Origin: a bacterium
GTDB lineage: Bacteria; Planctomycetota; SKW154; DAOVDS01
Assembly: GCA_030669415.1 (NCBI GenBank)
Contig: DAOVDS010000001.1
Coordinates: forward strand, 1 to 50,590
Reading direction: 5' to 3'
DNA length: 50,590 nucleotides
Part shown: positions 1,837-39,353 of the stretch, in pieces
How positions within the stretch are numbered: position 1 is the first letter of the stretch
How the letters are laid out: every line of letters begins with the position of its first letter
Position numbers and translations under genes: made by a program
The notes under the pieces: model-generated
The model's input: only the letters and a program-made list of their open reading frames with translations
What the model was told of the DNA's origin: nothing
The model's database searches: none

Positions 1837-2289
1837 TTAGTCTCCTTCGCCTCCTCCGCCGGCTTTGAGCTCTTCGGACTTCTTGATTTCGGCTTCGAGC
1901 CAGGTTTTGACTGCGTCGCCCTGCATCAGCTTTGCGATGTCGGCGTCGAGGTTGCCGGGCTCAATAACAACGATCCAGCCTCCGCCGTACGGGTCTTTGT
2001 TGATGAGCGTGGAGTCGTTTTCGAGCTCCTCGTTGATCTCGACAATCTCACCGGAGACCGGGGCAACGAGCTTGCCAATCCACTTCGCGGACTGGATTTT
2101 GCCGCATACCTCGCCGGCCTCGACATCATCGCCCTCGAACGGGAGGTCAACGTAGACGATGTCGCCGCTGGTGCCCTGGAACATGTCGTTCATGCCTACC
2201 CTGGCCTTGCCATCCTCGACCTTGACCCAAGCGTGGTCAGTGTGATAGTAAAGCTCGTCCGGCATGTTGTAGCCGCCTATTTCCGCCAT
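1837..2289 (-). CDS. gcvH: Glycine-cleavage H-type lipoyl carrier protein
   Basis: YYHTDHAWVKVEDG...GKIQSAKWIGKLVAPVSGEI (lipoyl-Lys context). ATG at 2289 is preceded by GGAGGAAAGGAG. It is the last gene of the flx/hdr operon. Confidence 0.85.
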   Translation of the reverse strand: MAEIGGYNMPDELYYHTDHAWVKVEDGKARVGMNDMFQGTSGDIVYVDLPFEGDDVEAGEVCGKIQSAKWIGKLVAPVSGEIVEINEELENDSTLINKDPYGGGWIVVIEPGNLDADIAKLMQGDAVKTWLEAEIKKSEELKAGGGGEGD

Positions 2290-2346
2290 ACTTCTTCTCC
2301 TTTCCTCCAAAACGGGCTGGAATCTTAGTTCCTGCACAATGCCATG

Positions 2347-3303
2347 TCAATACTCTTTCGGCATATTCTGCAACTCGGCGAGGGTGAACACGGGTCCATC
2401 CTTGCAGACGTATTTCGAGCCTATGTTGCAGCGGCCGCACTTGCCTATGCCGCATTTCATGCGCATCTCAAGCGAGTTAACGATTCTGTCAGGGGGGAAG
2501 CCGAGCCTGGTCAGGACAGGCAGGGTGAACTTGATCATGATGGGCGGTCCGCAAACTATGGCCCACGAGTTTTCGGAACTGGGCGCGGCCGCTTCGACCA
2601 TCTGCGGCACAAACGCGGTGAAGGTGGAGACGCCTTCGGGCATCTTGGTCTCACCGGGGCTTTTGAGGTTGACGGGTACCCAGCCTTGGGCGGCAGCCTC
2701 TTCTATGGGGCCGTCGGGGCCGAACTTCCAGTCGATGCACTGGTAGAGGTTGATGTCGTCGCGCTTGGCCCACTCGGCGAGCTCGTCTCGGTAGAGGAGG
2801 AGGTTCGGGTTTCTCGCGCCGTAGACTACTTCTATGTTGGCGTAGTCGCCGCGGTGCGACGGGTCGAGCAGCCAGACGATGTAGGCGCGAAGGGTGGTGA
2901 AGGCGAAGCCGCCGCCGATAATGACGATGTTGTCGCCCTTCATTTTCTCGTAGGGGTACCAGTTGCCCATGGGCCCTCGCACGCCCATTGTGTCGCCTTC
3001 CTGCATCTGGTGGAGCTTGCGCGTCACGAGGCCCACCTTGTTGACGGTGAAACGCAGAAACCCTTTTTCCGTCGGCGAGGATGCGATGCCGATGGGTGAT
3101 TCACCCTTGCCGAGTATGGACAATTCGGCGAACTGGCCCGGCTCATACTTGAATGCTTCTTCATCTTCCTTGTCGAGGAAGACGAGGTCGAAGGTCTTGA
3201 GCATGTTGTCTTCAGTTTCGACCCTGGCCCTGTCGATTCGCACGGGATAAGGCACGTAAGGGTTGCCCGCCTTCCCGACCTGAGCTGCCGCAGTCTTTTC
3301 CAC
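2347..3303 (-). CDS. FlxA/AsrB/HydG-like FAD/NAD(P)-binding oxidoreductase with a C-terminal 2Fe-2S site
   Basis: IVIIGGGFAF dinucleotide fold and C-terminal CGIGKCGRCNIG...C (PyrK/AsrB-type cluster). Confidence 0.8.
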   Translation of the reverse strand: MEKTAAAQVGKAGNPYVPYPVRIDRARVETEDNMLKTFDLVFLDKEDEEAFKYEPGQFAELSILGKGESPIGIASSPTEKGFLRFTVNKVGLVTRKLHQMQEGDTMGVRGPMGNWYPYEKMKGDNIVIIGGGFAFTTLRAYIVWLLDPSHRGDYANIEVVYGARNPNLLLYRDELAEWAKRDDINLYQCIDWKFGPDGPIEEAAAQGWVPVNLKSPGETKMPEGVSTFTAFVPQMVEAAAPSSENSWAIVCGPPIMIKFTLPVLTRLGFPPDRIVNSLEMRMKCGIGKCGRCNIGSKYVCKDGPVFTLAELQNMPKEY

Positions 3304-3309
3304 GCTGTG

Positions 3310-4350
3310 CTACGTTCCTTCCTGAACTTTCCGGGCCTGCATGACCTTGCCCAGCACCTCTCTGATATCGATGTTGACAGGGCAGTTGGCAATGCAGCGC
3401 CCGCACCCCACGCAGGCGGTGCAGCCGAAATTCTCGACATAGTAGTTGAACTTGTGCTGCAGCCTCTGGCGCCAGCGCTGGCCCTGCTGCGAGCGGGGAT
3501 TGTGTCCGGAGCCGTGGAGGGTGAAGAGTGGGAACATGCACGAGTCCCAGTTGCGCACCCTCTGACCGCTTGATTTCACAACTTCATCCTGGATATCGAA
3601 GCAGTGGCAGGTGGGGCACAGATAGGTGCACGCGCCGCAGCCGAGGCAGGATTGAGCAATCTCGGCCCAGATGGGGTGCTCGAAGATGTCCTTGAGCTTC
3701 TCGGGCATTCCGGCAAGCTCGACCTTCGAGGAGATTCTTTTCTCAGCCTCGGCAGCGATGGATTCCTTCTGCTTGAGGCCCTCTTTGCCTGCATCGGGCA
3801 GGTCGGCAACGGCCTTTTCACCCTTGCCGGTGAGGGGCTCAAGTAGCAGCTTGTCCCCGAGGTCTGTCATAAACACGTCAGCCCCGTCGGTGCTGAACGG
3901 GCCGCAGTCCAGCGATGTACAGAAACAGGTTTGACACGGGCTATTGCAGCCGAGCGCGAAAACGGTGGATGCGTCGCGCTTGGCTTTGTAGTAGGGGTCA
4001 ACAAACTCGTCGTTATCGAAGAGCTTGTCGAGAATGGTGAAGGACTTCGCGTCGCAAGGCCTGAGGGCGAAGAGAGCGCGCGGCTTCCTGTCGAACTCGG
4101 TATCCCCGAGCTCAAAGCCGTCGCCCTTGCGCTTGTAGTCGTACATGCGCTCGGTCTGCGGGAAGAAGGCGGCCTTGGGCGTGTTGCGGGTGTTGGCGAA
4201 GTCGAATGTGACGCTCTCACCCTCGCGGGGCGCGGCAAAGAGCACCATCCCGTCGCGCTGAACGGGCGCCAGTACAAGTGCCTGCTGCGCGAGCTTTGCG
4301 AGGAATTCGCCTACTTTCGACTTGTCCAGCAGTTTTTCTCCACTCGCCAC
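3310..4350 (-). CDS. FlxB/AsrA/HydB-like iron-sulfur subunit
   Basis: Cys clusters CLGCGACTYLCPTCHCFD and CVGCGRCIANCP; position between the flxA-like and flxC-like genes. Confidence 0.7.
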   Translation of the reverse strand: MASGEKLLDKSKVGEFLAKLAQQALVLAPVQRDGMVLFAAPREGESVTFDFANTRNTPKAAFFPQTERMYDYKRKGDGFELGDTEFDRKPRALFALRPCDAKSFTILDKLFDNDEFVDPYYKAKRDASTVFALGCNSPCQTCFCTSLDCGPFSTDGADVFMTDLGDKLLLEPLTGKGEKAVADLPDAGKEGLKQKESIAAEAEKRISSKVELAGMPEKLKDIFEHPIWAEIAQSCLGCGACTYLCPTCHCFDIQDEVVKSSGQRVRNWDSCMFPLFTLHGSGHNPRSQQGQRWRQRLQHKFNYYVENFGCTACVGCGRCIANCPVNIDIREVLGKVMQARKVQEGT

Positions 4351-4392
4351 CTAACACTCCCATTGTTCAAACGCGCTGCGCTGAAACCAGCG

Positions 4393-5343
4393 TCAGATAA
4401 CCTGTTCCATCTGGTCTTCCTCGGCAAAGGTATTCAGCGGCGGCAGTTCCTCAATATCCATACCCACCTCGTGCCCGAAGCGGTCTTTGACGCTCTTTTC
4501 GAGCCTCGAGAGGAGACGCCGGATGTCTATGTTCATGGGGCACGCGCTGACGCACGCGCCGCAGTCGCTGCAGCGCCCCGCGAGATGATAACAGCGCACA
4601 ATCTGGAAAATATCGAGAGCTGTCTGCTCCTGGCCGGTCTCAATCCAGCGGGGCTGCCAGTTCTCGACGAAGCATGTCGGGCAATAGCACATGGGGCATG
4701 CCTCACGGCAGGCATAGCACCTGATGCAGCGAGAGGCTTCGTTCTCGAACTCGGCCCAGCGCTGCTGGGCTGGTTTTTTTTCGTCTTCTTCAAGCTGCGC
4801 GTAGCGAGCGGGGTTGGGCACGTCCTCAACCGGCTCGGCCGCCATCACGTCGTGGATTACGGGGTTGTGGTGCTCGCAGACAGCGCAGTTGGCGCGCAGG
4901 ATGTCTGCAATCTTGAGCTCCTCTGTGCCAGCCGGGGTTTCGACTTTGAGTGAGCCGTCGCCGACGCTGCACGAGAGAATCCTGCCGGGGTCGGGAAGGC
5001 GGGTTCTGTCAACAACGCCAACGCAGGGGACGCCGATTATGTATAGGTCATCCCTCTGTCCCTGACCTTCCTTGAGCAGTGCGACAATGGAGCGGCTGTC
5101 GCAGCCCTTGGCGCAGATACCGACTTTCTTCCCGGTGAAATCCTTGAGGTAGCGTGCGAGGTTGTTTTCCGCGAAGGGCCCCCACACCAGTTTCCCGGTA
5201 TCCTCCGGCTTTGTGACAAAGACTGGTACGTAGCGCCCGGGCAGTGTTCCCTCGCCGAAGCCTATGACCACTTCGACCCTGCCCGACTCGAGCGCATCCC
5301 TGGCCAGCTCTCTTATCTTCTTCGCTGTATCTTCGTAGGCCAC
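4393..5343 (-). CDS. FlxC-like iron-sulfur subunit
   Basis: CIRCYACREACPMCYCPTC and CSDCGACVSACP motifs; operon context. Confidence 0.65.
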   Translation of the reverse strand: MAYEDTAKKIRELARDALESGRVEVVIGFGEGTLPGRYVPVFVTKPEDTGKLVWGPFAENNLARYLKDFTGKKVGICAKGCDSRSIVALLKEGQGQRDDLYIIGVPCVGVVDRTRLPDPGRILSCSVGDGSLKVETPAGTEELKIADILRANCAVCEHHNPVIHDVMAAEPVEDVPNPARYAQLEEDEKKPAQQRWAEFENEASRCIRCYACREACPMCYCPTCFVENWQPRWIETGQEQTALDIFQIVRCYHLAGRCSDCGACVSACPMNIDIRRLLSRLEKSVKDRFGHEVGMDIEELPPLNTFAEEDQMEQVI

Positions 5344-5395
5344 CTAACTACCTCACCGGACTCAAGTAGTCTTTTTGCAACTTCCATTAGTGTGC

Positions 5396-5626
5396 TCATT
5401 TCGATTCCGCATCTGTAAGCACAGAGTCTAAACTCTTGTTTGCGCGAAGCAGCCATCCGGCCTCTCGCAGTAGTATTTCCGTGAGCCGCGCGGACTCCTC
5501 TATGCTCATCTTTCTCAGTTTCCGTTCCTCTTCTCTTGTAATATCCTTATACCCTTCAAAAGGCGCTTTCCCAATAAAACGCCCTGAACTCTTTGCAGGA
5601 GCCCTGTTTTTTTTTCTGTTTACCAA
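5396..5626 (-). CDS. Small basic hypothetical protein (76 aa)
   Basis: TTG start with GGAG 7 nt upstream. No recognisable motif. Sits inside the operon next to a 178-nt structured spacer. Confidence 0.35.
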   Translation of the reverse strand: MVNRKKNRAPAKSSGRFIGKAPFEGYKDITREEERKLRKMSIEESARLTEILLREAGWLLRANKSLDSVLTDAESK

Positions 5627-5804
5627 CTACTACTCCGTCACTATTGAAATTGTAGGTTTATGTCTAACTGACTCCTATGAAACACAGAACATTCAACACC
5701 TGATTTTATTACACGGCGGACAAGTCCACCGGCTAACTACCCGCGCCCTGAAGGACGCGGCTTACATCAACCCCGCGTCAGAGACGCGTGGCTTCTTCTG
5801 CACA

Positions 5805-6260
5805 CTATGTTGTAAGTCCTGCCGCCAAACATTTATAAGATTTCACGAGTCGGCGTGCAGGCCCCAGCGCCCTGACCTTGTCGATAGTAGCGTTGACGAT
5901 TTTGACAAATCTCTCAGCCTCGGCGGAAGAGAGCCATGCGAAATTCGCCCTGCCCTCTTCAATCCCAAGCGATTCAAGGAGGTCTTTAAGGACGACAAAC
6001 TTGCGCCGCGCCAGCAGGTTGCCCACGCTGTAGTGGCACTCGCCGGGATGGCAGCCCGCAACGACTACCCCATCGGCACCACGCTGGAGCGCGCGAAGGA
6101 TAAACATGGGGTTAACCCTGCTGGTGCAGGGCACTCTTATGATTCTCACATTGGGCGGATACTGGAACCTTGACACGCCTGCCAGGTCGGCTGCGGCGAA
6201 CCCTCACCACTGGCACAGGAAGGCGACAACCTTCGGCTCCCAATTTTTGTTCTCTTCCAT
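5805..6260 (-). CDS. mvhD: MvhD/FlxD-like 2Fe-2S protein with in-frame UGA (selenocysteine) at codon 19
   Basis: ATG 6260 (GAGAGG upstream) reads MEENKNWEPKVVAFLCQW-TGA(6204-6206)[26 protein letters not shown]...GCHPGECHY. The paralog has Cys here (FCCNWCSY). The ORF track only shows the part after the TGA. Confidence 0.8.
6176..6198 (-). promoter_or_regulatory. Weak candidate SECIS-like stem-loop downstream of the mvhD (5805-6260) UGA
   Basis: CGCC-G-CAG-CCGAC-CUG-GCA-GGCG, starting 5 nt after the UGA. An interrupted stem only. Confidence 0.25.
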
Positions 6261-6289
6261 GTATATTCCGGCCTCTCACCTATGAGTTT

Positions 6290-6697
6290 CTACTCAATCG
6301 GCGCTACTTCCTCAGTTTCCAGGAAGAATTCATGGTTTTTCTCGTCAAAAATAATCAGGAACTTCTCGAAGAAGTCTTTTCTTCCAAGGATATTCATTCT
6401 GGCGGTATATTGCCTTGAGAAGCCTATATCACAGGGGAATTCCTGCTCGGCAACTGCCACGGTCAGTCTATGTACATATGCCCGAATCAGTCCCCCTACG
6501 CCTCCAAGCAAGACAGGCTCGCCCTCCTCAATTTTCAGTCCTAACGTATGGGCAACTTCCTCCCGAAATATTGAAACTGTTGCGCCGGAGTCCAACAGCG
6601 CGACATTCTGGTGCCCGCGCTTACCTGTTTTGACCTCCAGTGGAGCCAAAGGGAAGAATTTGCCCCACCTCAGAGTATAGCCGTACACTCGTTTCAT
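6290..6697 (-). CDS. Retropepsin-like (clan AA) aspartyl protease
   Basis: ALLDSGATVSIF active-site motif. About 135 aa, single-lobe size. Overlaps the upstream small gene by 4 nt. Confidence 0.7.
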   Translation of the reverse strand: MKRVYGYTLRWGKFFPLAPLEVKTGKRGHQNVALLDSGATVSIFREEVAHTLGLKIEEGEPVLLGGVGGLIRAYVHRLTVAVAEQEFPCDIGFSRQYTARMNILGRKDFFEKFLIIFDEKNHEFFLETEEVAPIE

Positions 6698-6924
6698 AGG
6701 ACTAAGAACCCCTCGTCCCTACGAGGAACGCAAAATGTCCACGGATGTTCCTCGCCCTTGGCTTTTGCCTGCTTCATTGCAGATTCCAGATTCTCGTCAG
6801 CGCCGAGCAGTCCCTTTTCAGGGGTAAAAGCAATCCATTTCCCTTCATTCGCTTCCAGTACATCCTGATGGGCCGATATCCACTCAAGCACTTCTGCGTT
6901 TTCGCCTTTTTTTACTTCTTCCAT
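6694..6924 (-). CDS. Small protein resembling the DUF5678-type partner of retropepsin-like proteases
   Basis: 76 aa with GKWIAF...KAKGEEHPWTFCVP pattern. Translationally coupled to the protease gene. The family assignment is from memory. Confidence 0.5.
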   Translation of the reverse strand: MEEVKKGENAEVLEWISAHQDVLEANEGKWIAFTPEKGLLGADENLESAMKQAKAKGEEHPWTFCVPRRDEGFLVL

Positions 6925-6935
6925 TTCGGGTACTC

Positions 6936-9900
6936 CTACAACGCTTCTATGAGCGACACTATCTGGGCGTTGGTAAAGCCTTTCATATCAATCGCGTTTG
7001 ACCGGCAGGATGCCGCGCAGATACCGCAGCCCTTGCAGAGCGCGCCGGTGACTTCAGCGTATCGGCTGGTCACGCCGCGGCGCGTCACCTCGACCACCTT
7101 CACTGCCGAGTAGGGGCAGACGCTCTCACACATGCCGCATGCGGAGCACAGTGCGGTGTTGACCTGCGAAATAGTACCCTCCGCCTTGATTTCGTCGAGC
7201 GTAAGCACGGTGCAGGCGCGCGAGACGGCCGCATTGGCCTGCACGATTGATTCCTCGACAAACTTGGGGAAATGGCACAGGCCTGCCATGAAGACGCCAT
7301 CCGTGGTGAAGTCAACGGGCCGGAGCTTCATGTGCGCCTCAAGATAGAAGCTCTCGGCGTTGGTGTCTATCTTGAGCATCTGGGCGAGTGATTTCGTATC
7401 TTCCTGCGGCACAGTGGCGACTGAGAGCACGAGGTAATCTGCAGGTATGCTGATGTCCTGGCCGATGAGCCTGTCAAGGACCCGCACGTAGGGCTTCCCA
7501 TCGCGCTCTTCGACGACGGGCGGGTTCTCCGGCTCGTAGGTGGTGAAGATGACGCCCTTTTCGCGCGCCTCTTTGTATGCCAGCTCTCTCATGCCGTAAG
7601 TGCGAATGTCGCGGTAGAGGACATAGATGTTCGCGCCGGGATTGAGCTCCTTGAGCTTGAGTGCGTTCTTGACCGCCTGCGTGCAGCAGAAGCGCGAGCA
7701 GTAAGGCCGCTCGTCGCAGCGGGAGCCGACGCATTGAATCATAACGACGTTCTTTGCCGCCGTTACGTCCTTATCACCGTCGGCGAGCCTGTTCTCGAAT
7801 TCGGACTGGGTGAGCACGCGTTCGTTTTTGCCGTAGAGGTACTCGGTGGGCTTGTATTCGAGTCCGCCGGTGCACACAATCACTACGCCGTGCTCGTACT
7901 CTTCCTCGCCCGCTGGCGTTTCGAGCAGTGTCTTGTAGTTTCCTATGTAGCCTTCGATGTTCTTTATGCTGGTGGAGGTAAAGAGCTTGAGGTTGGGCTG
8001 CGCCTTCACCTGCGCGATAGTCTCTTCAAGCAGCTTCTGCGGGTCTTCGCCCGAGAGGGTGAAGCGGATATGTCGCAGGTGTCCGCCCAGCTCTTCCTCG
8101 CGCTCGACCAGCGCGACCTCGAAGCCCTGCTGCGCGATTCCGAGCGCGGCGGTCATTCCGGCGATTCCGCCGCCAATGACGAGCGCCTTCTTGGTGAGCG
8201 GAAATGTCAGGCGCTCAAGCGGCTCAAGCAGGTAGGCCTTGTTTACGGACATGGCGATTAGCTCTTTGGCCTTCTCCGTGGCGACATCAGGGAGGGCCGC
8301 ATGAACCCAGGAGCACTGGTCGCGGATATTGGCCATCTCGAACAGGTAGCGGTTGAGCCCGCTTGCGGCGCAGGTTTCCTGGAAGAGCGGCTCGTGCGTT
8401 CTCGGCGTGCAGCTTGCCACCACGACGCGGTTGATGCCCTGCTCCTTTATGACTTCCTTCATCTTCTCCTGCGTATCCTGCGAGCAGGTGAACAGGTTGC
8501 GCTCCACGTAAGTCACGTTGGGCAGCGTTTTGGCGAACTCTTCGAGTGCTTCCATGTCGAGCACGCCGGCGATGTTGATTCCACAGTGGCAGAGAAAGAC
8601 GCCGATACGCGGGCCTTCGGCCGCGATGTCTTTCTCCTTTACGGGCTCCGGTATGGTAATTTCCTTGCCGCGCTCGCCGGCGAGATAGCGGGAGGCAAGC
8701 GCCGCGGCCCCGGAGGACTGGGTAACAGTTTCGGGTATGTCCTTTGGTCCCTGGAAGGTCCCGATTACGTACACACCGTCCCGGGTGGTTGAGAGGGGGG
8801 TGAACTCTCCCGTCTTTGCGAAGCCGAACTGGTCGAGCTCAATTGCGCAGACTTCGGCGAGTTTTGCCGCCTCGATGGGGGTTGAGAGGCCGGCCGAGAG
8901 GACGACCATCTCGTACTGGCCTGTCTTGAGCTCGCCTTCTTCAGTTTCGTACTTGATAAACAGGTTGCGGGTAGCGGGGTCTTCTTCGATGTTCGAGACG
9001 CGGGAGCGAACGAACTTCACGCCCGACTTCTCCTTGGCACGCTCGACGTACTTGTCGAAGTCCTTGCCAAAGGAGCGGAGGTCCATGTAGAAGATGGTGC
9101 AGTCGAGGCCGTGGACGTGGTCCTTGGCGATGACTGCTTCCTTGGTGGCATACATGCAGCAGGCGCTTGAGCAGTAGTCCTTCCCTACCCGGCTGTCACG
9201 CGAGCCGACGCACTGGACGAAAGCCAGGGATTTGGGCTCTTCGCCATCAGAGGGTCGCAGAATCAGCCCGCGATAGGGCCCGCCGGCAGCGAGGATGCGC
9301 TCGAACTCGAGCGCGTTGACGACGTTCGGGAAGCGCGCCCAGCCGAGTTCGGGCTTGAGCGAGCAGTCGAAGAGTTCGGAGCCTGCCGCGAGGATAACAG
9401 CCCCCACGTTGAGCTTCTCGACGCGCTCGGCCTGCTCGTAGTTTACGGCATCGGCCTTGCAGAGCTCGAAGCAGAGTCCGCAGCCGACGCACACGTCCTT
9501 GTCAATGGCGAATATCCTCGGCACCGCCTGTTCGTAATCCACGCGGATAGCGGGCCCGACACACATATCAAGGTTGAAGACGCTGAGCGCCTCGACGGGG
9601 CAGTGCTCGGCACACACGCCGCAGCCGGTGCACTTGTCAGGGTCAACGTACTGCGGCCGGTAGGCGATAGTGACTTTGAAGTTTCCCTTCTTGCCCTCTA
9701 CTTTGCGGACATCGGCGTTCATCAGGAGTTCGACGTTCGGGTGCCTTCCCGAGGCAACCAGCTTGGGCGAGATAATTCACATTGCGCAGTCGTTTGTCGG
9801 GAAGGTCTTGTCAAGCTGGCTCATCATGCCGCCGATGCAGGGCTTTCGGTCAAGCAGGTAGACCTTGAAGCCGGAATCACCGAGGTCAAGAGCCGCCTGC

Positions 9901-9968
9901 ATGCCGCCTATGCCGCCGCCGACGACGAGGACTGACCCGACCTTTCGCCCGTTACCTTTTTTCGCCAA
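6936..9968 (-). CDS. hdrA: Heterodisulfide reductase subunit A-like flavoprotein (tandem HdrA modules) with in-frame UGA (selenocysteine) at codon 64
   Basis: ORFs 9777..9968 and 6936..9722 share a frame. The join reads [11 protein letters not shown](9777-9779)[18 protein letters not shown], which is the HdrA DCxMC(I/L)xPK motif. Two GGGIxGMxAAL Rossmann motifs, two CVGSR...CC motifs and several 4Fe-4S CxxCxxCxxxCP sites. Confidence 0.9.
9740..9759 (-). promoter_or_regulatory. Candidate bacterial SECIS hairpin for hdrA
   Basis: GGU(U)GCC-UCGGGAA-GGCACC, 17 nt after the UGA. Same stem architecture and bulged U as the E. coli fdhF SECIS GGU(U)GCA-GGUC-UGCACC. Confidence 0.5.
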
Positions 9969-10000
9969 TTTCTCAGACCTCGCGCTGCAGAATCTATCAG

Positions 10001-10768
10001 CTACACCAGTGCAGTATACAGCGGGCTGGTATCTCTTACTTCCTTAACATCCACGATGTTTCGCCCGCGAAGAATTGTCACCATTCGGAGTACCTCGGCC
10101 GGGTCAAGCCCCAGCTCCGGCGCCATCTCCCTGACTGAGCGGGGCTCCTTGCGCGTCAGGTTGACAATGCGAGCTTTGACGTACTCGTCCCTGACAGTTG
10201 TCTCAAGAAGCTCCTTGAAGGTCTCCTTGGGGTACTCCTCGCCGAACACGTTGGTGTCGGTTTCGAGACTGTACTGCTTGCCGACAAGCCAGCGCAGGCG
10301 TTCGCTGCAGGAGCCGTCGCGTGCTGCCCTCAGGTTTTCCTCGAGTTTTTCGCCGGTTGTCCCTTCGGAGCCCAGCGGGCCGAGTGCTCGCACAGCCTCG
10401 ATCGTCTCGGTTACCACGTCCACGAAGCGCTGGGCCTCGGCCGAGGAGCACCATTCGAGCCGGAACCGCTCAGGCGAGACGCCCGCAAGCTCCAGCAGCC
10501 GCTTTATGACAGGCTCCCGTCGAAGCGCATGGTAGTTGCCACTAACATAGTGGCAGTCGCCGAGGTGTCACCCGAGGACCATGACGGCATCGATGCCGAG
10601 GAGAAAAGCCTCGAAAACGAGCCGCGTGTCAATCCTGCCGGAGCACATGACCCGGATATCCCGGACGTTTGTTGGGTACTGGAGGCGCGAGACTCCCGCC
10701 AGGTCTGCGCTGGCATACGAGCACCAGTTGCAGCAGAACGCGAGTATCCTGGGCTCGAAATCCGCCAT
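10001..10768 (-). CDS. mvhD: MvhD-like 2Fe-2S protein with in-frame UGA (selenocysteine) at codon 67 and a roughly 130-aa C-terminal extension
   Basis: ORFs 10568..10768 and 10001..10423 share a frame. The join reads [11 protein letters not shown](10568-10570)[17 protein letters not shown], which is the conserved GCHxGDCHY motif with Sec in place of the first Cys. AGGAG lies upstream of ATG 10768. Confidence 0.85.
10537..10555 (-). promoter_or_regulatory. Candidate SECIS hairpin for mvhD (10001-10768)
   Basis: UGCCACU-AUGUU-AGUGGCA: a perfect 7-bp stem starting 12 nt after the UGA. Confidence 0.45.
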
Positions 10769-11169: not shown

Positions 11170-11691
11170 TTGAGTCCCGAAACCGCCGCTCAAGGCGAGA
11201 TTGTGGTTACGGATCTCGACCCGAACTTCAAGTACGAAGTCGCCGAGCTGCCGGGAGGCGAAAACCTGCGTTACTGCTTCACCTGCGGCACGTGTACGGC
11301 TTCCTGTCCCATTCGCGAGGTCAACGAGATATTCAACCCTCGCAAGATAATCCGCATGATTGTCCTGGGCATGAAGGAGAGGGTGCTAAAGAGTGAATTC
11401 ATGTGGCTCTGCACGGGGTGCTACTCGTGCCAGGAGCGCTGCCCGCAGGATGTGAAAATAACGGACCTGATGAACGCGCTGAAGAACTACGCGGTCAAGC
11501 ACGGGGTTGTCCACCCGGGCGTTGCCGCGCAGGCCGAGCCGATTTACAACGACGGGCGCATCTACGCAATCGAGGATTTCGACAACAAGAAGCGCGAGAA
11601 ACTGGGGCTGCCCCGCGTCAAGCCCAGGACCGAGGATGCGTCCAAGATATTCGAAGTTACGGGTCTGGACAAGATAGTCAAGAAAGGGTAA
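11170..11691 (+). CDS. hdrC: Heterodisulfide reductase subunit C
   Basis: CFTCGTCTASCP and CTGCYSCQERCP motifs; immediately followed by hdrB. Confidence 0.85.
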   Translation: MSPETAAQGEIVVTDLDPNFKYEVAELPGGENLRYCFTCGTCTASCPIREVNEIFNPRKIIRMIVLGMKERVLKSEFMWLCTGCYSCQERCPQDVKITDLMNALKNYAVKHGVVHPGVAAQAEPIYNDGRIYAIEDFDNKKREKLGLPRVKPRTEDASKIFEVTGLDKIVKKG

Positions 11692-11696
11692 CCGAG

Positions 11697-12584
11697 ATGG
11701 CTGACAACAAGTATCTGCTGTTTCTGGGATGCACAATACCCGCCAGGGCCAGGAACTACGAGCTTTCCAGCCGCGCGATAGCCGCGAAGCTCGGCATCGA
11801 GTTTGTAGAGGAGGACGAGTTCTTCTGCTGCGGCTTCCCCGTCAAGAACGCGGACTGGATGGCCTGCGCACTCATGGCTGCGCGCAACATCGCCATTGCG
11901 GAGCAGAAGGGCCTGGACATCTGCTGCCTGTGCTCAGCCTGCACGGGTGTTATGGCCGAAGTCAACGAGCACCTCAAGCACGACGAGAAGCTGCGCGAGG
12001 AAGTCAACGAGAAGCTCGCCAAAATCAACCCCAGCTACAAGGTCGAGGGCAAGCTCGCGGTCAAGCACTTCGCGCGAATCCTCTTCGAGGACGTGGGCGT
12101 CGAGAAGATAAAAGAGCTCGCCGCCAAGCCGCTCGAGATGCTCAGAATCGCACCGCACTACGGCTGCCACTACCTCAAGCCTTCGGACGTCCACAAGTGG
12201 GACAACGTCGAAGACCCTCAGACGCTCGATGAAATTATCACTGCCTGCGGCGCCGAGTCGGTCGAGTACACCGACAAGAAGTTCTGCTGCGGCGGCGCCC
12301 TGCTCGCTTACGACCAGGATACCGCCCTCGCCGTGGGAAACCACAAGCTCGAAATCGTGAAAGACGCGGGCGTGGACGCAATCACCCTCATCTGCCCCTT
12401 CTGCGCCGTAATGTACGATGACAACCAGCGCACGATAGAAGCCAAGTTCGAGAAGGAGTACAAGCTGCCCGTGCTCTACCTGCCACAGGTTATCGGCCTG
12501 TCCATGGGTATCCCGGCCAAGGAGCTCGGCATGCAGTTCAACAAGGTCAAGACCAAGGATCTCCTCGCCAAGGTCGAAGCATAA
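11697..12584 (+). CDS. hdrB: Heterodisulfide reductase subunit B (two CCG domains)
   Basis: FFCCGFP and KFCCGGALL CCG motifs. ATG 11697 lies 5 nt after the hdrC stop. The longer ORF from 11403 is an overlap artefact. Confidence 0.9.
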   Translation: MADNKYLLFLGCTIPARARNYELSSRAIAAKLGIEFVEEDEFFCCGFPVKNADWMACALMAARNIAIAEQKGLDICCLCSACTGVMAEVNEHLKHDEKLREEVNEKLAKINPSYKVEGKLAVKHFARILFEDVGVEKIKELAAKPLEMLRIAPHYGCHYLKPSDVHKWDNVEDPQTLDEIITACGAESVEYTDKKFCCGGALLAYDQDTALAVGNHKLEIVKDAGVDAITLICPFCAVMYDDNQRTIEAKFEKEYKLPVLYLPQVIGLSMGIPAKELGMQFNKVKTKDLLAKVEA

Positions 12585-37994: not shown

Positions 37995-39353
37995 GTGAGA
38001 AGGATTCCGTCACACAAAGAACTTGAAGCTCTTCAGAAAGAACTCCAGGATAAACACGACCCGGACAGGACAAGGATTCTCGTGTGTCACACCGGCTGCA
38101 AGGCCATGGGCGCGGACCAGTTGCTGGCAGCTTTCAAGGAAGGAGTCGCCTCAGCCGGACTCCAGGAGGAAGTCGAGGTTGTTGAGACAGGCTGCCACGG
38201 ATGTTGCGCCGGTGCGCCCGTTATAGCCATCGAGCCGCAAGGCATCGTCTACCACAGCGTACAACCTGAGAACGTGGCGGAAGTTATCGAGAAGACCATA
38301 AAGAACGGCGAGTGCGTGGACTCCCTCGCCGCCGAGTCCGTGGACGACAAGCCCGTCTTCAAGCGTGAAGAGATTCCCTTCTACCGGCAGCAGCAGAAAA
38401 TCGTCCTGCGCAACTGCGGCAGGATTGACCCCACCAACTGGGAGCATTACCTCGCGCGTGACGGCTACAGCGCGCTCGCCAAGGCACTTGCCGGCCTTAC
38501 GCCCAAACAGGTCATTGACGAGGTGCTCCAGTCCGGCCTGCGAGGCCGCGGAGGCGCAGGCTTCCCCACGGGCAGAAAATGGCAGTTCGCGCGCAATGCG
38601 AAGGGCTCGCCCAAGTACATAATCTGCAACGCGGACGAAGGTGACCCCGGCGCATTCATGGACCGGAGCATCCTCGAAGGCGACCCGCACTCCGTCATTG
38701 AGGGAATGATAATAGGCGCCTTCGCAATCGGCGCGCAGAAAGGCTTCATCTACGTGCGGGCCGAGTACCCGATTGCAGTCAGGCACGCTCACAAGGCGCT
38801 CGACCAGGCACGCGCGCTCGGAATGCTCGGAGAGAACATCCTCGGCAGCAGTTTCGATTTCGAGATAGAGGTGCGCGAGGGCGCAGGCGCGTTCGTCTGC
38901 GGCGAAGAGACAGCCCTTATCGGCTCCATTGAAGGCAAGCGCGGCAAGGGTAAGTTCCATGCGCTCAAATACACCGAGTCCGCCGAGCTGCCTGACAAGG
39001 ACTACCCAATGCTGCTTACCACAGGCAGGCTGCTCTACCATTTCCACACAGGCACCATGACCCGAAGGGTCGAGTCACTCGAAGCCATCTCCCCCGAGCC
39101 GTTTGTAGAAGTCAACGCCGAGGATGCGAAAAAGCTCGGCATAGCCGATGGCGAGCTAATTCAGCTCCGCTCCCGCAGAGGTCAGACACAGGCAAAGGCG
39201 CTTATAGGCTCAATGGTGGACCGCGGCATCCTCTTCATGCCTTTCCACTTCAAGGAAGCCGCTGTCAACCTGCTGACAAATGACGCGCTTGACCCGGTTG
39301 CGAAAATCCCCGAGTTCAAAGTCTGCGCAGTCGCCATTGAGAAGGTGTCCTAA
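37995..39353 (+). CDS. Chimeric ORF: NuoF/FdsB-like N-terminus (aa 1 to about 317) fused in frame to the C-terminal molybdopterin-dinucleotide-binding domain of a formate dehydrogenase alpha subunit
   Basis: RGRGGAGFPTGRKW, CNADEGDPGAF and GAGAFVCGEETALIGSIEGKRG are followed directly by KDYPMLLTTGRLLYHFHTGTMTRR...FMPFHFKEAAVNLLTNDALDPVAKIPEFKVCAV. The NuoF 4Fe-4S domain and almost all of FdhA are missing. Likely a deletion remnant. Confidence 0.75.
   Translation: MRRIPSHKELEALQKELQDKHDPDRTRILVCHTGCKAMGADQLLAAFKEGVASAGLQEEVEVVETGCHGCCAGAPVIAIEPQGIVYHSVQPENVAEVIEKTIKNGECVDSLAAESVDDKPVFKREEIPFYRQQQKIVLRNCGRIDPTNWEHYLARDGYSALAKALAGLTPKQVIDEVLQSGLRGRGGAGFPTGRKWQFARNAKGSPKYIICNADEGDPGAFMDRSILEGDPHSVIEGMIIGAFAIGAQKGFIYVRAEYPIAVRHAHKALDQARALGMLGENILGSSFDFEIEVREGAGAFVCGEETALIGSIEGKRGKGKFHALKYTESAELPDKDYPMLLTTGRLLYHFHTGTMTRRVESLEAISPEPFVEVNAEDAKKLGIADGELIQLRSRRGQTQAKALIGSMVDRGILFMPFHFKEAAVNLLTNDALDPVAKIPEFKVCAVAIEKVS

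Follow-up and report, generated by a model that had tools for sequence, protein, structure and literature searches.

A probable selenocysteine codon in a fused-dimer hdrA gene of an uncultured sediment bacterium

Contig DAOVDS010000001.1 of assembly GCA_030669415.1, analysed here over its whole length of 50.6 kb (the window), carries on its minus strand two open reading frames (ORFs) which each encode part of an HdrA protein and are set apart by a UGA. The question that this locus raises is whether the UGA ends a first, short protein or whether it is read as selenocysteine (Sec) within a single chain. Decoding of this codon, UGA-64 of hdrA, as Sec and not as a stop is considered very probable; Sec insertion itself, its dependence on SelB and the redox role of the resulting Cys–Sec pair are what we infer from the comparisons given below.

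The in-frame UGA and the protein that it interrupts

The two minus-strand ORFs, 9777..9968 (63 amino acids (aa), TTG start) and 6936..9722 (928 aa), stand in the same frame in the ORF listing, and translation from 9968 to 6936 gives 1010 codons with one internal stop only, the TGA at 9779-9777. The original prediction of one frame interrupted by a single TGA is thus borne out. The recoded hdrA (6936..9968, minus strand) begins at TTG 9968-9966, nine nucleotides (nt) after a GAGG at 9981-9978, a start and GAGG also found in the closest relative (locus L001), and ends at TAG 6938-6936. Its codon 64 (9777..9779, minus strand) is the proposed Sec codon, which pairs with Cys61 (codon 9788-9786) as C-x-x-U; the motif is D60-C61-A-M-U64, with Sec at the second Cys position of DCxxC. 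Since TGA is the stop codon of 10 of the 27 confidently identified window genes, UGA is not reassigned in this organism.

Domain searches were made with Cys substituted at the stop. Pfam recognizes two Rossmann/flavin adenine dinucleotide (FAD) modules in the product (aa 12-51 and 594-636) and Fer4 domains at aa 107-171 and 935-995, with three ferredoxin-type regions in all. In a phmmer search of the PDB, three collinear pieces of the product align with HdrA of Methanothermococcus thermolithotrophicus (5ODC_A, E=6.5e-193): aa 14-365 correspond to HdrA 147-498, the thioredoxin-reductase domain with an inserted ferredoxin; aa 451-607 to HdrA 2-158, the N-terminal cluster domain; and aa 828-1009 to HdrA 471-648, the end of the second reductase domain and the C-terminal ferredoxin. 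The strongest NCBIfam matches are HdrA/HdrA2 models, yet they score under the equivalog cut-offs, as is to be expected of a rearranged architecture. As judged from its sequence, the product is a complete fused-dimer HdrA of type II, a class defined in PMC12054007, with two thioredoxin-reductase modules and the HdrA N-terminal domain between them. More than 8000 homologs have this architecture of ~1000 aa.

The first alignment block is ungapped, and U64 therefore equals Cys197 of 5ODC_A exactly, as C61 equals Cys194 and K276 equals Lys409. The columns of C61 and C64 hold Cys in all 52 aligned full-length homologs, so that the placement of the UGA on the conserved DCxxC block of HdrA, first claimed from the letters of the window, is upheld by the proposed alignment with homologs as well as by the match to 5ODC_A. 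CxxU is the selenoprotein family motif listed for HdrA, and also for MvhD, in a 2026 review (PMC13188914). A further claim was that of a tandem HdrA in which only the first module carries Sec. The tandem arrangement stands, but there is nothing special in the restriction to one module: no CxxC motif exists in the second thioredoxin-reductase module anywhere in the family (the 52 full-length homologs), and Sec in the first module only therefore just reflects the design of the family.

Logan contigs from four marine-sediment metagenome runs cover 9777-9779 at word depths of about 5-31 and show no variant letter, which confirms the base calls. In all four runs the word depth rises 2- to 10-fold at 9776-9822, where short foreign contigs also have their ends; a near-identical motif of 30-40 nt is therefore common to many hdrA paralogs or populations that occur together, and this shared motif is likely an assembler breakpoint. 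The metagenomic origin of the contig and this bump, made of paralogous hdrA reads with the same motif, are what could be cited for a sequencing or assembly error in which TGA stands for TGC or TGT. The contigs of all four runs, however, read TGA with no alternative letter, and the codon is likewise TGA in the seven other distinct orthologs, which come from unrelated samples. An error of this kind is given practically no chance.

With the window, the distinct orthologs number eight (the window, L001, L002 = L003, L164, L165, L166, L167 and L168 = L169, from NCBI, JGI, ENA and Logan samples). They come from independent metagenomes, share 60-84% protein identity, and all have the TGA and the hairpin described below; in each of them the upstream "ORF" is 55-63 aa long and contains the GxGxxG motif. 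This set bears directly on the possibility that the TGA is a true stop, so that hdrA is either a pseudogene or the source of two polypeptides, one of 63 aa and one of 928 aa re-initiated at ATG 9722. Gene callers do split hdrA in this manner in every relative, and an ATG does follow the TGA at a distance of 18 codons. Those 18 codons, however, encode a conserved HdrA block. Moreover, ATG 9722 has no Shine–Dalgarno sequence before it, its Met is not kept (Thr in L166, Val in L168), and the split would part the GxGxxG FAD-binding beta-alpha-beta unit from the remaining Rossmann fold. A pseudogene is likewise at odds with a TGA held across 60% protein divergence and with purifying selection on both sides of it. 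The orthologs, which had been named as the place where separately translated pieces might come to light, thus argue against such pieces, and the chance that the TGA is a true stop is very slim.

The reading as Sec extends beyond these eight sequences. Among the best 120 of the more than 8000 homologs, 14 gene calls are shortened to 925-966 aa. They form one clade, and its sister is a Cys clade that includes a metagenome-assembled genome (MAG) of Planctomycetota. A wider search for related loci in genomes and metagenomes gave, among the matches listed, mostly Cys forms at no more than 59% identity. The best named matches are Planctomycetota MAGs (62% for HdrA, 76% for AtpD). It is tentatively proposed, at less than even odds, that the shortened calls represent a deep, so far undescribed clade of Sec fused-dimer HdrA, always mis-annotated as an ORF of 57-63 aa plus one of 925-948 aa. 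It would comprise at least 14 clusters at 90% identity from uncultured bacteria of sediments and cold seeps, outside the groups classically rich in Sec, with its own fdhF-like design of the selenocysteine insertion sequence (SECIS) and an MvhD partner that toggles between Sec and Cys. The clade is possibly related to Planctomycetota. Extra hdrA paralogs with the same TGA split occur in relatives, for example as 55 aa + 377 aa in L165 (1995-3311) and also in L018 (~268), and single genomes of the group therefore encode several Sec-HdrAs.

The downstream hairpin and a second UGA in the neighbouring gene

A SECIS-like hairpin, GGUUGCCUCGGGAAGGCACC (9740..9759, minus strand), begins 17 nt after the A of UGA-64. 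Its 5' arm GGU(U)GCCU occupies 9759-9752, with the bulged U at 9756, followed by the loop CGGGA at 9751-9747 and the 3' arm AGGCACC at 9746-9740. Counted from the U of the UGA, the hairpin comprises nt 21-40, with the pairs G21-C40, G22-C39, U23-A38, G25-C37, C26-G36, C27-G35 and U28-A34, the bulge U24 and the loop at nt 29-33; it lies inside the ORF and has a G in its apical loop. It is present in the minimum-free-energy structure of the window sequence, and RNAalifold on the eight-ortholog alignment independently yields the bulged-U hairpin. The original prediction was therefore right about the place of the hairpin, 17 nt downstream at 9740-9759, and about its bulged U, but its 3+3 bp and 7-nt loop have to be revised: comparison reveals one more pair in the upper stem, its fourth (a U-A that covaries with G-C), which makes 7 bp, a bulged U and a 5-nt loop. 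A lower-stem register with a U.C mismatch, as in the minimum-free-energy structure of the window alone, was rejected, the bulged-U register being backed by covariation and by RNAalifold.

On comparative sequence grounds, the hairpin is under selection as an RNA structure. Pairing is canonical in 98% of the pair cells of the alignment, as against 29-52% when the partners are slid by 1-3 columns. There are two compensatory pairs, with G-C<->U-A changes at both stem ends, and one compensatory change couples a Ser->Ala replacement with the synonymous AGG->CGG. Third codon positions are invariant at five of seven sites in the hairpin versus none of 13 in the flanks (Fisher p=0.0014). Among the invariant positions are one loop G and the bulged U (column 36), which is a synonymous site and yet unchanged in all eight sequences; the loop itself reads CGGGU in L165-L167. 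Two sister Cys forms keep the peptide KLVAAGRH through other codons, and in them the hairpin has decayed. Over 176 distinct sequences, the median folding energy is -10.0 kcal/mol for Sec forms versus -5.7 kcal/mol for Cys forms (Mann–Whitney U test, p=1e-6, without phylogenetic correction).

The closest known counterpart is the SECIS minihelix of Escherichia coli fdhF, GGUUGCAGGUCUGCACC. The arms GGU(U)GC / GCACC are identical, a bulged U and apical-loop G residues occur in both elements, and the codon register is the same (xxG GUU GCx ... CAC C), whereas the window hairpin is one pair longer. In 5419 of 5426 E. coli genomes, the fdhF sequence used (UGACACGGCCCAUCGGUUGCAGGUCUGCACC...) has a 100% match within fdhF.

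A second UGA is found directly upstream of hdrA, in a long mvhD/flpD-like gene (255 codons; 10001..10768, minus strand) whose product has a winged-helix-like tail at its C-terminus. It is codon 67 (10568..10570, minus strand), in VLG-U-HLGDCHY, and 12 nt after it stands a hairpin of 8 bp, UGCCACUA-UGU-UAGUGGCA (10537..10555, minus strand). Joined across the UGA, the product matches the full length of PF02662 FlpD (aa 8-130, E=1.5e-49) and also the NCBIfam model VhuD; the split into 66 aa and a downstream piece recurs in L001-L003. In the fetched loci, the column in G-[C/U]-H-x-G-D-C-H-Y reads TGY in 173 of the 191 motif matches and TGA in 17. The hairpin is common to Sec forms of Bacillota (L034, L039) and degraded in the Cys-type ortholog L164, the closest Cys-type relative (GCHPGDCHY). 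Within the Sec-HdrA clade, the long MvhD partner is of Sec type in the window and in L001-L003 and of Cys type in L164-L167; because its type varies while HdrA stays Sec, a Sec/Cys conversion of the partner is implied. With two independent sites in adjacent genes where UGA replaces a redox Cys and a hairpin follows, Sec decoding by the organism is strongly argued.

Several observations weigh against this reading. As a single sequence, the hdrA hairpin has an unremarkable stability (fold z-score +0.26), and resampling of synonymous codons gives equal stability in 10-25% of the trials (P=0.10-0.25), all 7 pairs arising in 1.6% of them. Given this chance-level stability, the argument rests on the ortholog comparison. 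Some Cys-type homologs fold as strongly in the same peptide region, and the peptide itself therefore predisposes the region to hairpins. Rfam, run on the whole window at the gathering threshold and on 9680-10620 at E<=10, gave chance-level matches only and no SECIS family; this null is uninformative, since no evidence against a SECIS follows from the lack of a curated family. The likeness to fdhF also has its limits: the 5-nt loop CGGGA takes the place of GGUC and has no loop U, and the helix begins 17 nt after the UGA and not 11 nt, that is, 6 nt further. The early claim of the same stem and bulged U as in fdhF accordingly holds for arms and bulge, but not for the GGUC tetraloop (G23/U24) or the 11-nt spacing, and given these differences the window hairpin would work like the fdhF element without being a copy of it. 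As to the decoding machinery, ARAGORN found no tRNA-Sec in the window or in 27 related loci, and Pfam and NCBIfam found no SelA, SelB or SelD among about 45 window ORFs, which include nearly all of those of at least 300 aa that are not obviously antisense; the search for selABCD was confined to the window, which is the whole contig, and to the related loci. None of the RNA-seq runs searched holds the locus.

The Sec machinery not being observed in these loci, and Cys being functional at this position in most homologs, both favour a reading in which UGA-64 is passed without selenium: a near-cognate tRNA or a mischarged tRNA(Sec) would put in Cys, Trp or Ser, and the hairpin would only stimulate read-through in a generic way. 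The bulged U and the G-rich apical loop, however, are SelB-type features common with fdhF, and two adjacent genes place UGA on the redox Cys of catalogued selenoprotein families (PMC13188914). Furthermore, a Cys codon is only one mutation off, yet the clade has kept TGA. Read-through without selenium is thus regarded as improbable, and decoding of UGA-64 as Sec is preferred.

Several Cys-type tandem HdrAs, such as L006, L145 and L133, form hairpins that equal or exceed the SECIS-like hairpin in stability (down to -16.9 kcal/mol) at nt 16-50 after the Cys codon, in the stretch that encodes KLVxxGRH. The strong hairpins of Cys forms may be remnant SECIS elements, or they may represent a peptide-imposed predisposition that eases the conversion of Cys to Sec.

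Operon, proposed mechanism and significance

In the proposed mechanism, the ribosome would arrive at UGA-64 and the hairpin 17 nt downstream would recruit SelB-GTP-Sec-tRNA(Sec), as does the SECIS of E. coli fdhF. The product would be a single fused-dimer HdrA of 1010 aa, whose first thioredoxin-reductase module is predicted to bind FAD and to hold the redox pair C61-x-x-U64. This pair would be homologous to Cys194/Sec197 of methanococcal HdrA and to Cys59-Cys62 of BamE, the second module having no such pair. In methanococcal HdrA and in BamE, the pair lies between the bifurcating flavin and a [4Fe-4S] cluster, and a (selenyl)sulfide electron relay has been proposed (PMC13518236; bioRxiv 10.64898/2026.04.10.717634).

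The remaining genes of the operon were assigned with Pfam and NCBIfam. On the minus strand these are a second mvhD/flpD, of Cys type (5805-6176), and genes for an FrhB-like Fe-S protein (4393-5343), a ShyB/AsrA-like Fe-S subunit (3310-4350) and a ShyC/AsrB-like FAD/NAD(P)-binding subunit (2347-3303), together with gcvH (1837-2337); as a group (1837..6176) they would make up an Flx-like NAD(P)H module. Divergently, on the plus strand, lie hdrC (11170-11691; NCBIfam TIGR03290, E=1.7e-36) and hdrB (ORF 11403-12584; TIGR03288, E=8.5e-85, and the Pfam CCG domain), in which the HdrB homology starts from about aa 100. The gene order is the same in the Sec-type loci L001-L003 and L164 and in the Cys-type sisters L170 and L171. 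The fused HdrA is thus encoded together with a long MvhD that probably has Sec as well, with an NAD(P)H-oxidising module of Flx type and with a divergent HdrCB, a set of genes which points to a flavin-based, electron-bifurcating complex linked to NAD(P)H in an uncultured marine-sediment bacterium. That the host is bacterial follows from the lipid A acyltransferase and the F-type ATPase encoded in the window.

Compared with the syntenic loci L001 and L002, the window has an extra segment of ~0.7 kb (~6258-6968) between hdrA and the second mvhD, which holds a DUF5678 ORF (6694-6924) and an ORF for a retropepsin-like aspartyl protease (6290-6697) according to Pfam, and another of ~0.5 kb (~5356-5840) between the second mvhD and the frhB-like gene. 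Elsewhere in the window, an ORF of 452 aa (37995-39353, plus strand) joins a NuoE-like 2Fe-2S domain, a truncated NuoF flavin mononucleotide domain and a complete Molydop_binding domain, and is followed by mobA. Molydop_binding is the C-terminal domain of enzymes of the formate-dehydrogenase type, and the ORF looks like an in-frame deletion remnant of an operon for an NAD-linked formate dehydrogenase. Contigs of two runs span its junction unchanged.

Sec-HdrA and Sec-MvhD are long-established selenoprotein families to which the window genes add members, gene callers are known to split hdrA wrongly at Sec codons, and the current understanding of Sec decoding and of Hdr enzymes is unchanged. The value of the locus lies mainly in the correction of annotation: here and in all relatives found, gene callers break two genes of an energy-metabolism operon into two pieces each, so that protein catalogues and metabolic reconstructions of sediment MAGs miss the key FAD-binding N-terminus of HdrA. 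Beyond that, the locus is of modest value for its distinct SECIS design, for the tentative deep clade of type II HdrAs with Sec and for an MvhD partner that toggles between Sec and Cys. In addition, the locus contributes a fused-dimer HdrA with a putative Cys–Sec pair at the site of the (selenyl)sulfide relay in the structures of M. maripaludis Hdr-Vhu-Fwd and of the Geobacter class II benzoyl-CoA reductase (BCRII), a relay whose role both structure papers call unresolved (PMC13518236; bioRxiv 10.64898/2026.04.10.717634). Close Sec and Cys versions of HdrA and of MvhD offer natural material for comparison. If the host phylum is new for Sec use, the known range of the Sec-decoding trait would be extended; if the deep Sec clade holds, it would provide a natural Sec/Cys series to probe the CxxC/U pair in electron bifurcation of the HdrA type.

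Comparison with known systems

Archaeal SECIS elements lie outside the coding region; the window hairpin is inside the ORF, as in bacteria. At the protein level, the Sec-HdrA of Methanococcales resembles the window product in that Sec stands at the same position, as C-x-x-U in the FAD-binding thioredoxin-reductase domain, and in that its MvhD/VhuD partner is a selenoprotein. It differs in being a single-module protein that dimerises, whereas the modules of the window protein are fused in one chain. In HdrA of M. maripaludis, residue 197 is Sec, and cryo-electron microscopy revealed a Cys–Sec bridge between cluster A3 and the FAD (PMC13518236).

Among bacterial selenoprotein families, HdrA was the fourth and FrhD/MvhD the third most populous in 2006, fused hdrA-hdrA forms included (PMC1794560), and D. 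autotrophicum alone has several such selenoproteins (PMC2702500). The Sec-HdrA and Sec-FrhD(MvhD) of Deltaproteobacteria and Firmicutes share with the window the UGA at a Cys of CxxC, a SECIS just downstream and the co-location of hdrA and mvhD (PMC1794560; PMC2702500). A second group of Sec tandem HdrAs (the Desulfobacterales MAG L018 and the metagenome loci L122, L123, L127 and L129) has a hairpin at the same place, but of another design, CUGGUCG-AGGU-CGGCCGG as against GGU(U)GCCN-CGGGN-NGGCACC in the clade of the window. Sec tandem forms thus occur beyond the window too, in the 14-cluster clade and in the group of Desulfobacterales type.

The fused layout has a structural parallel in BCRII of Geobacter metallireducens. 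BamE is a fused HdrA dimer whose N-terminal thioredoxin-reductase module has the bifurcating FAD, with the Cys59-Cys62 disulfide at 3.4 A from a [4Fe-4S] cluster and 13 A from that FAD, and BamF, an MvhD of unusual length, has a winged helix and contains Sec (bioRxiv 10.64898/2026.04.10.717634). By the preprint's description, the window pair of a 255-aa Sec MvhD and a 1010-aa fused HdrA is laid out alike. In contrast, BamE has Cys at the pair where the window protein has its proposed Sec, Sec is residue 19 of BamF and residue 67 of the window MvhD, and the window has neither the tungsten subunits BamB/C nor BamGHI, with the Flx-like module and HdrBC instead. No BamE chain is among the PDB phmmer matches.

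In gene content, the nearest likeness is to the NADH-linked FlxABCD-HdrABC complexes of sulfate reducers, reportedly described by Ramos et al. in 2015: both sets comprise an MvhD-like FlxD, two Fe-S subunits, an FAD/NAD(P)-binding subunit and HdrA, B and C. The predicted window system is set apart by a fused-dimer HdrA with a probable Sec, by an extra, long MvhD, by gcvH and by the divergent orientation of hdrCB.

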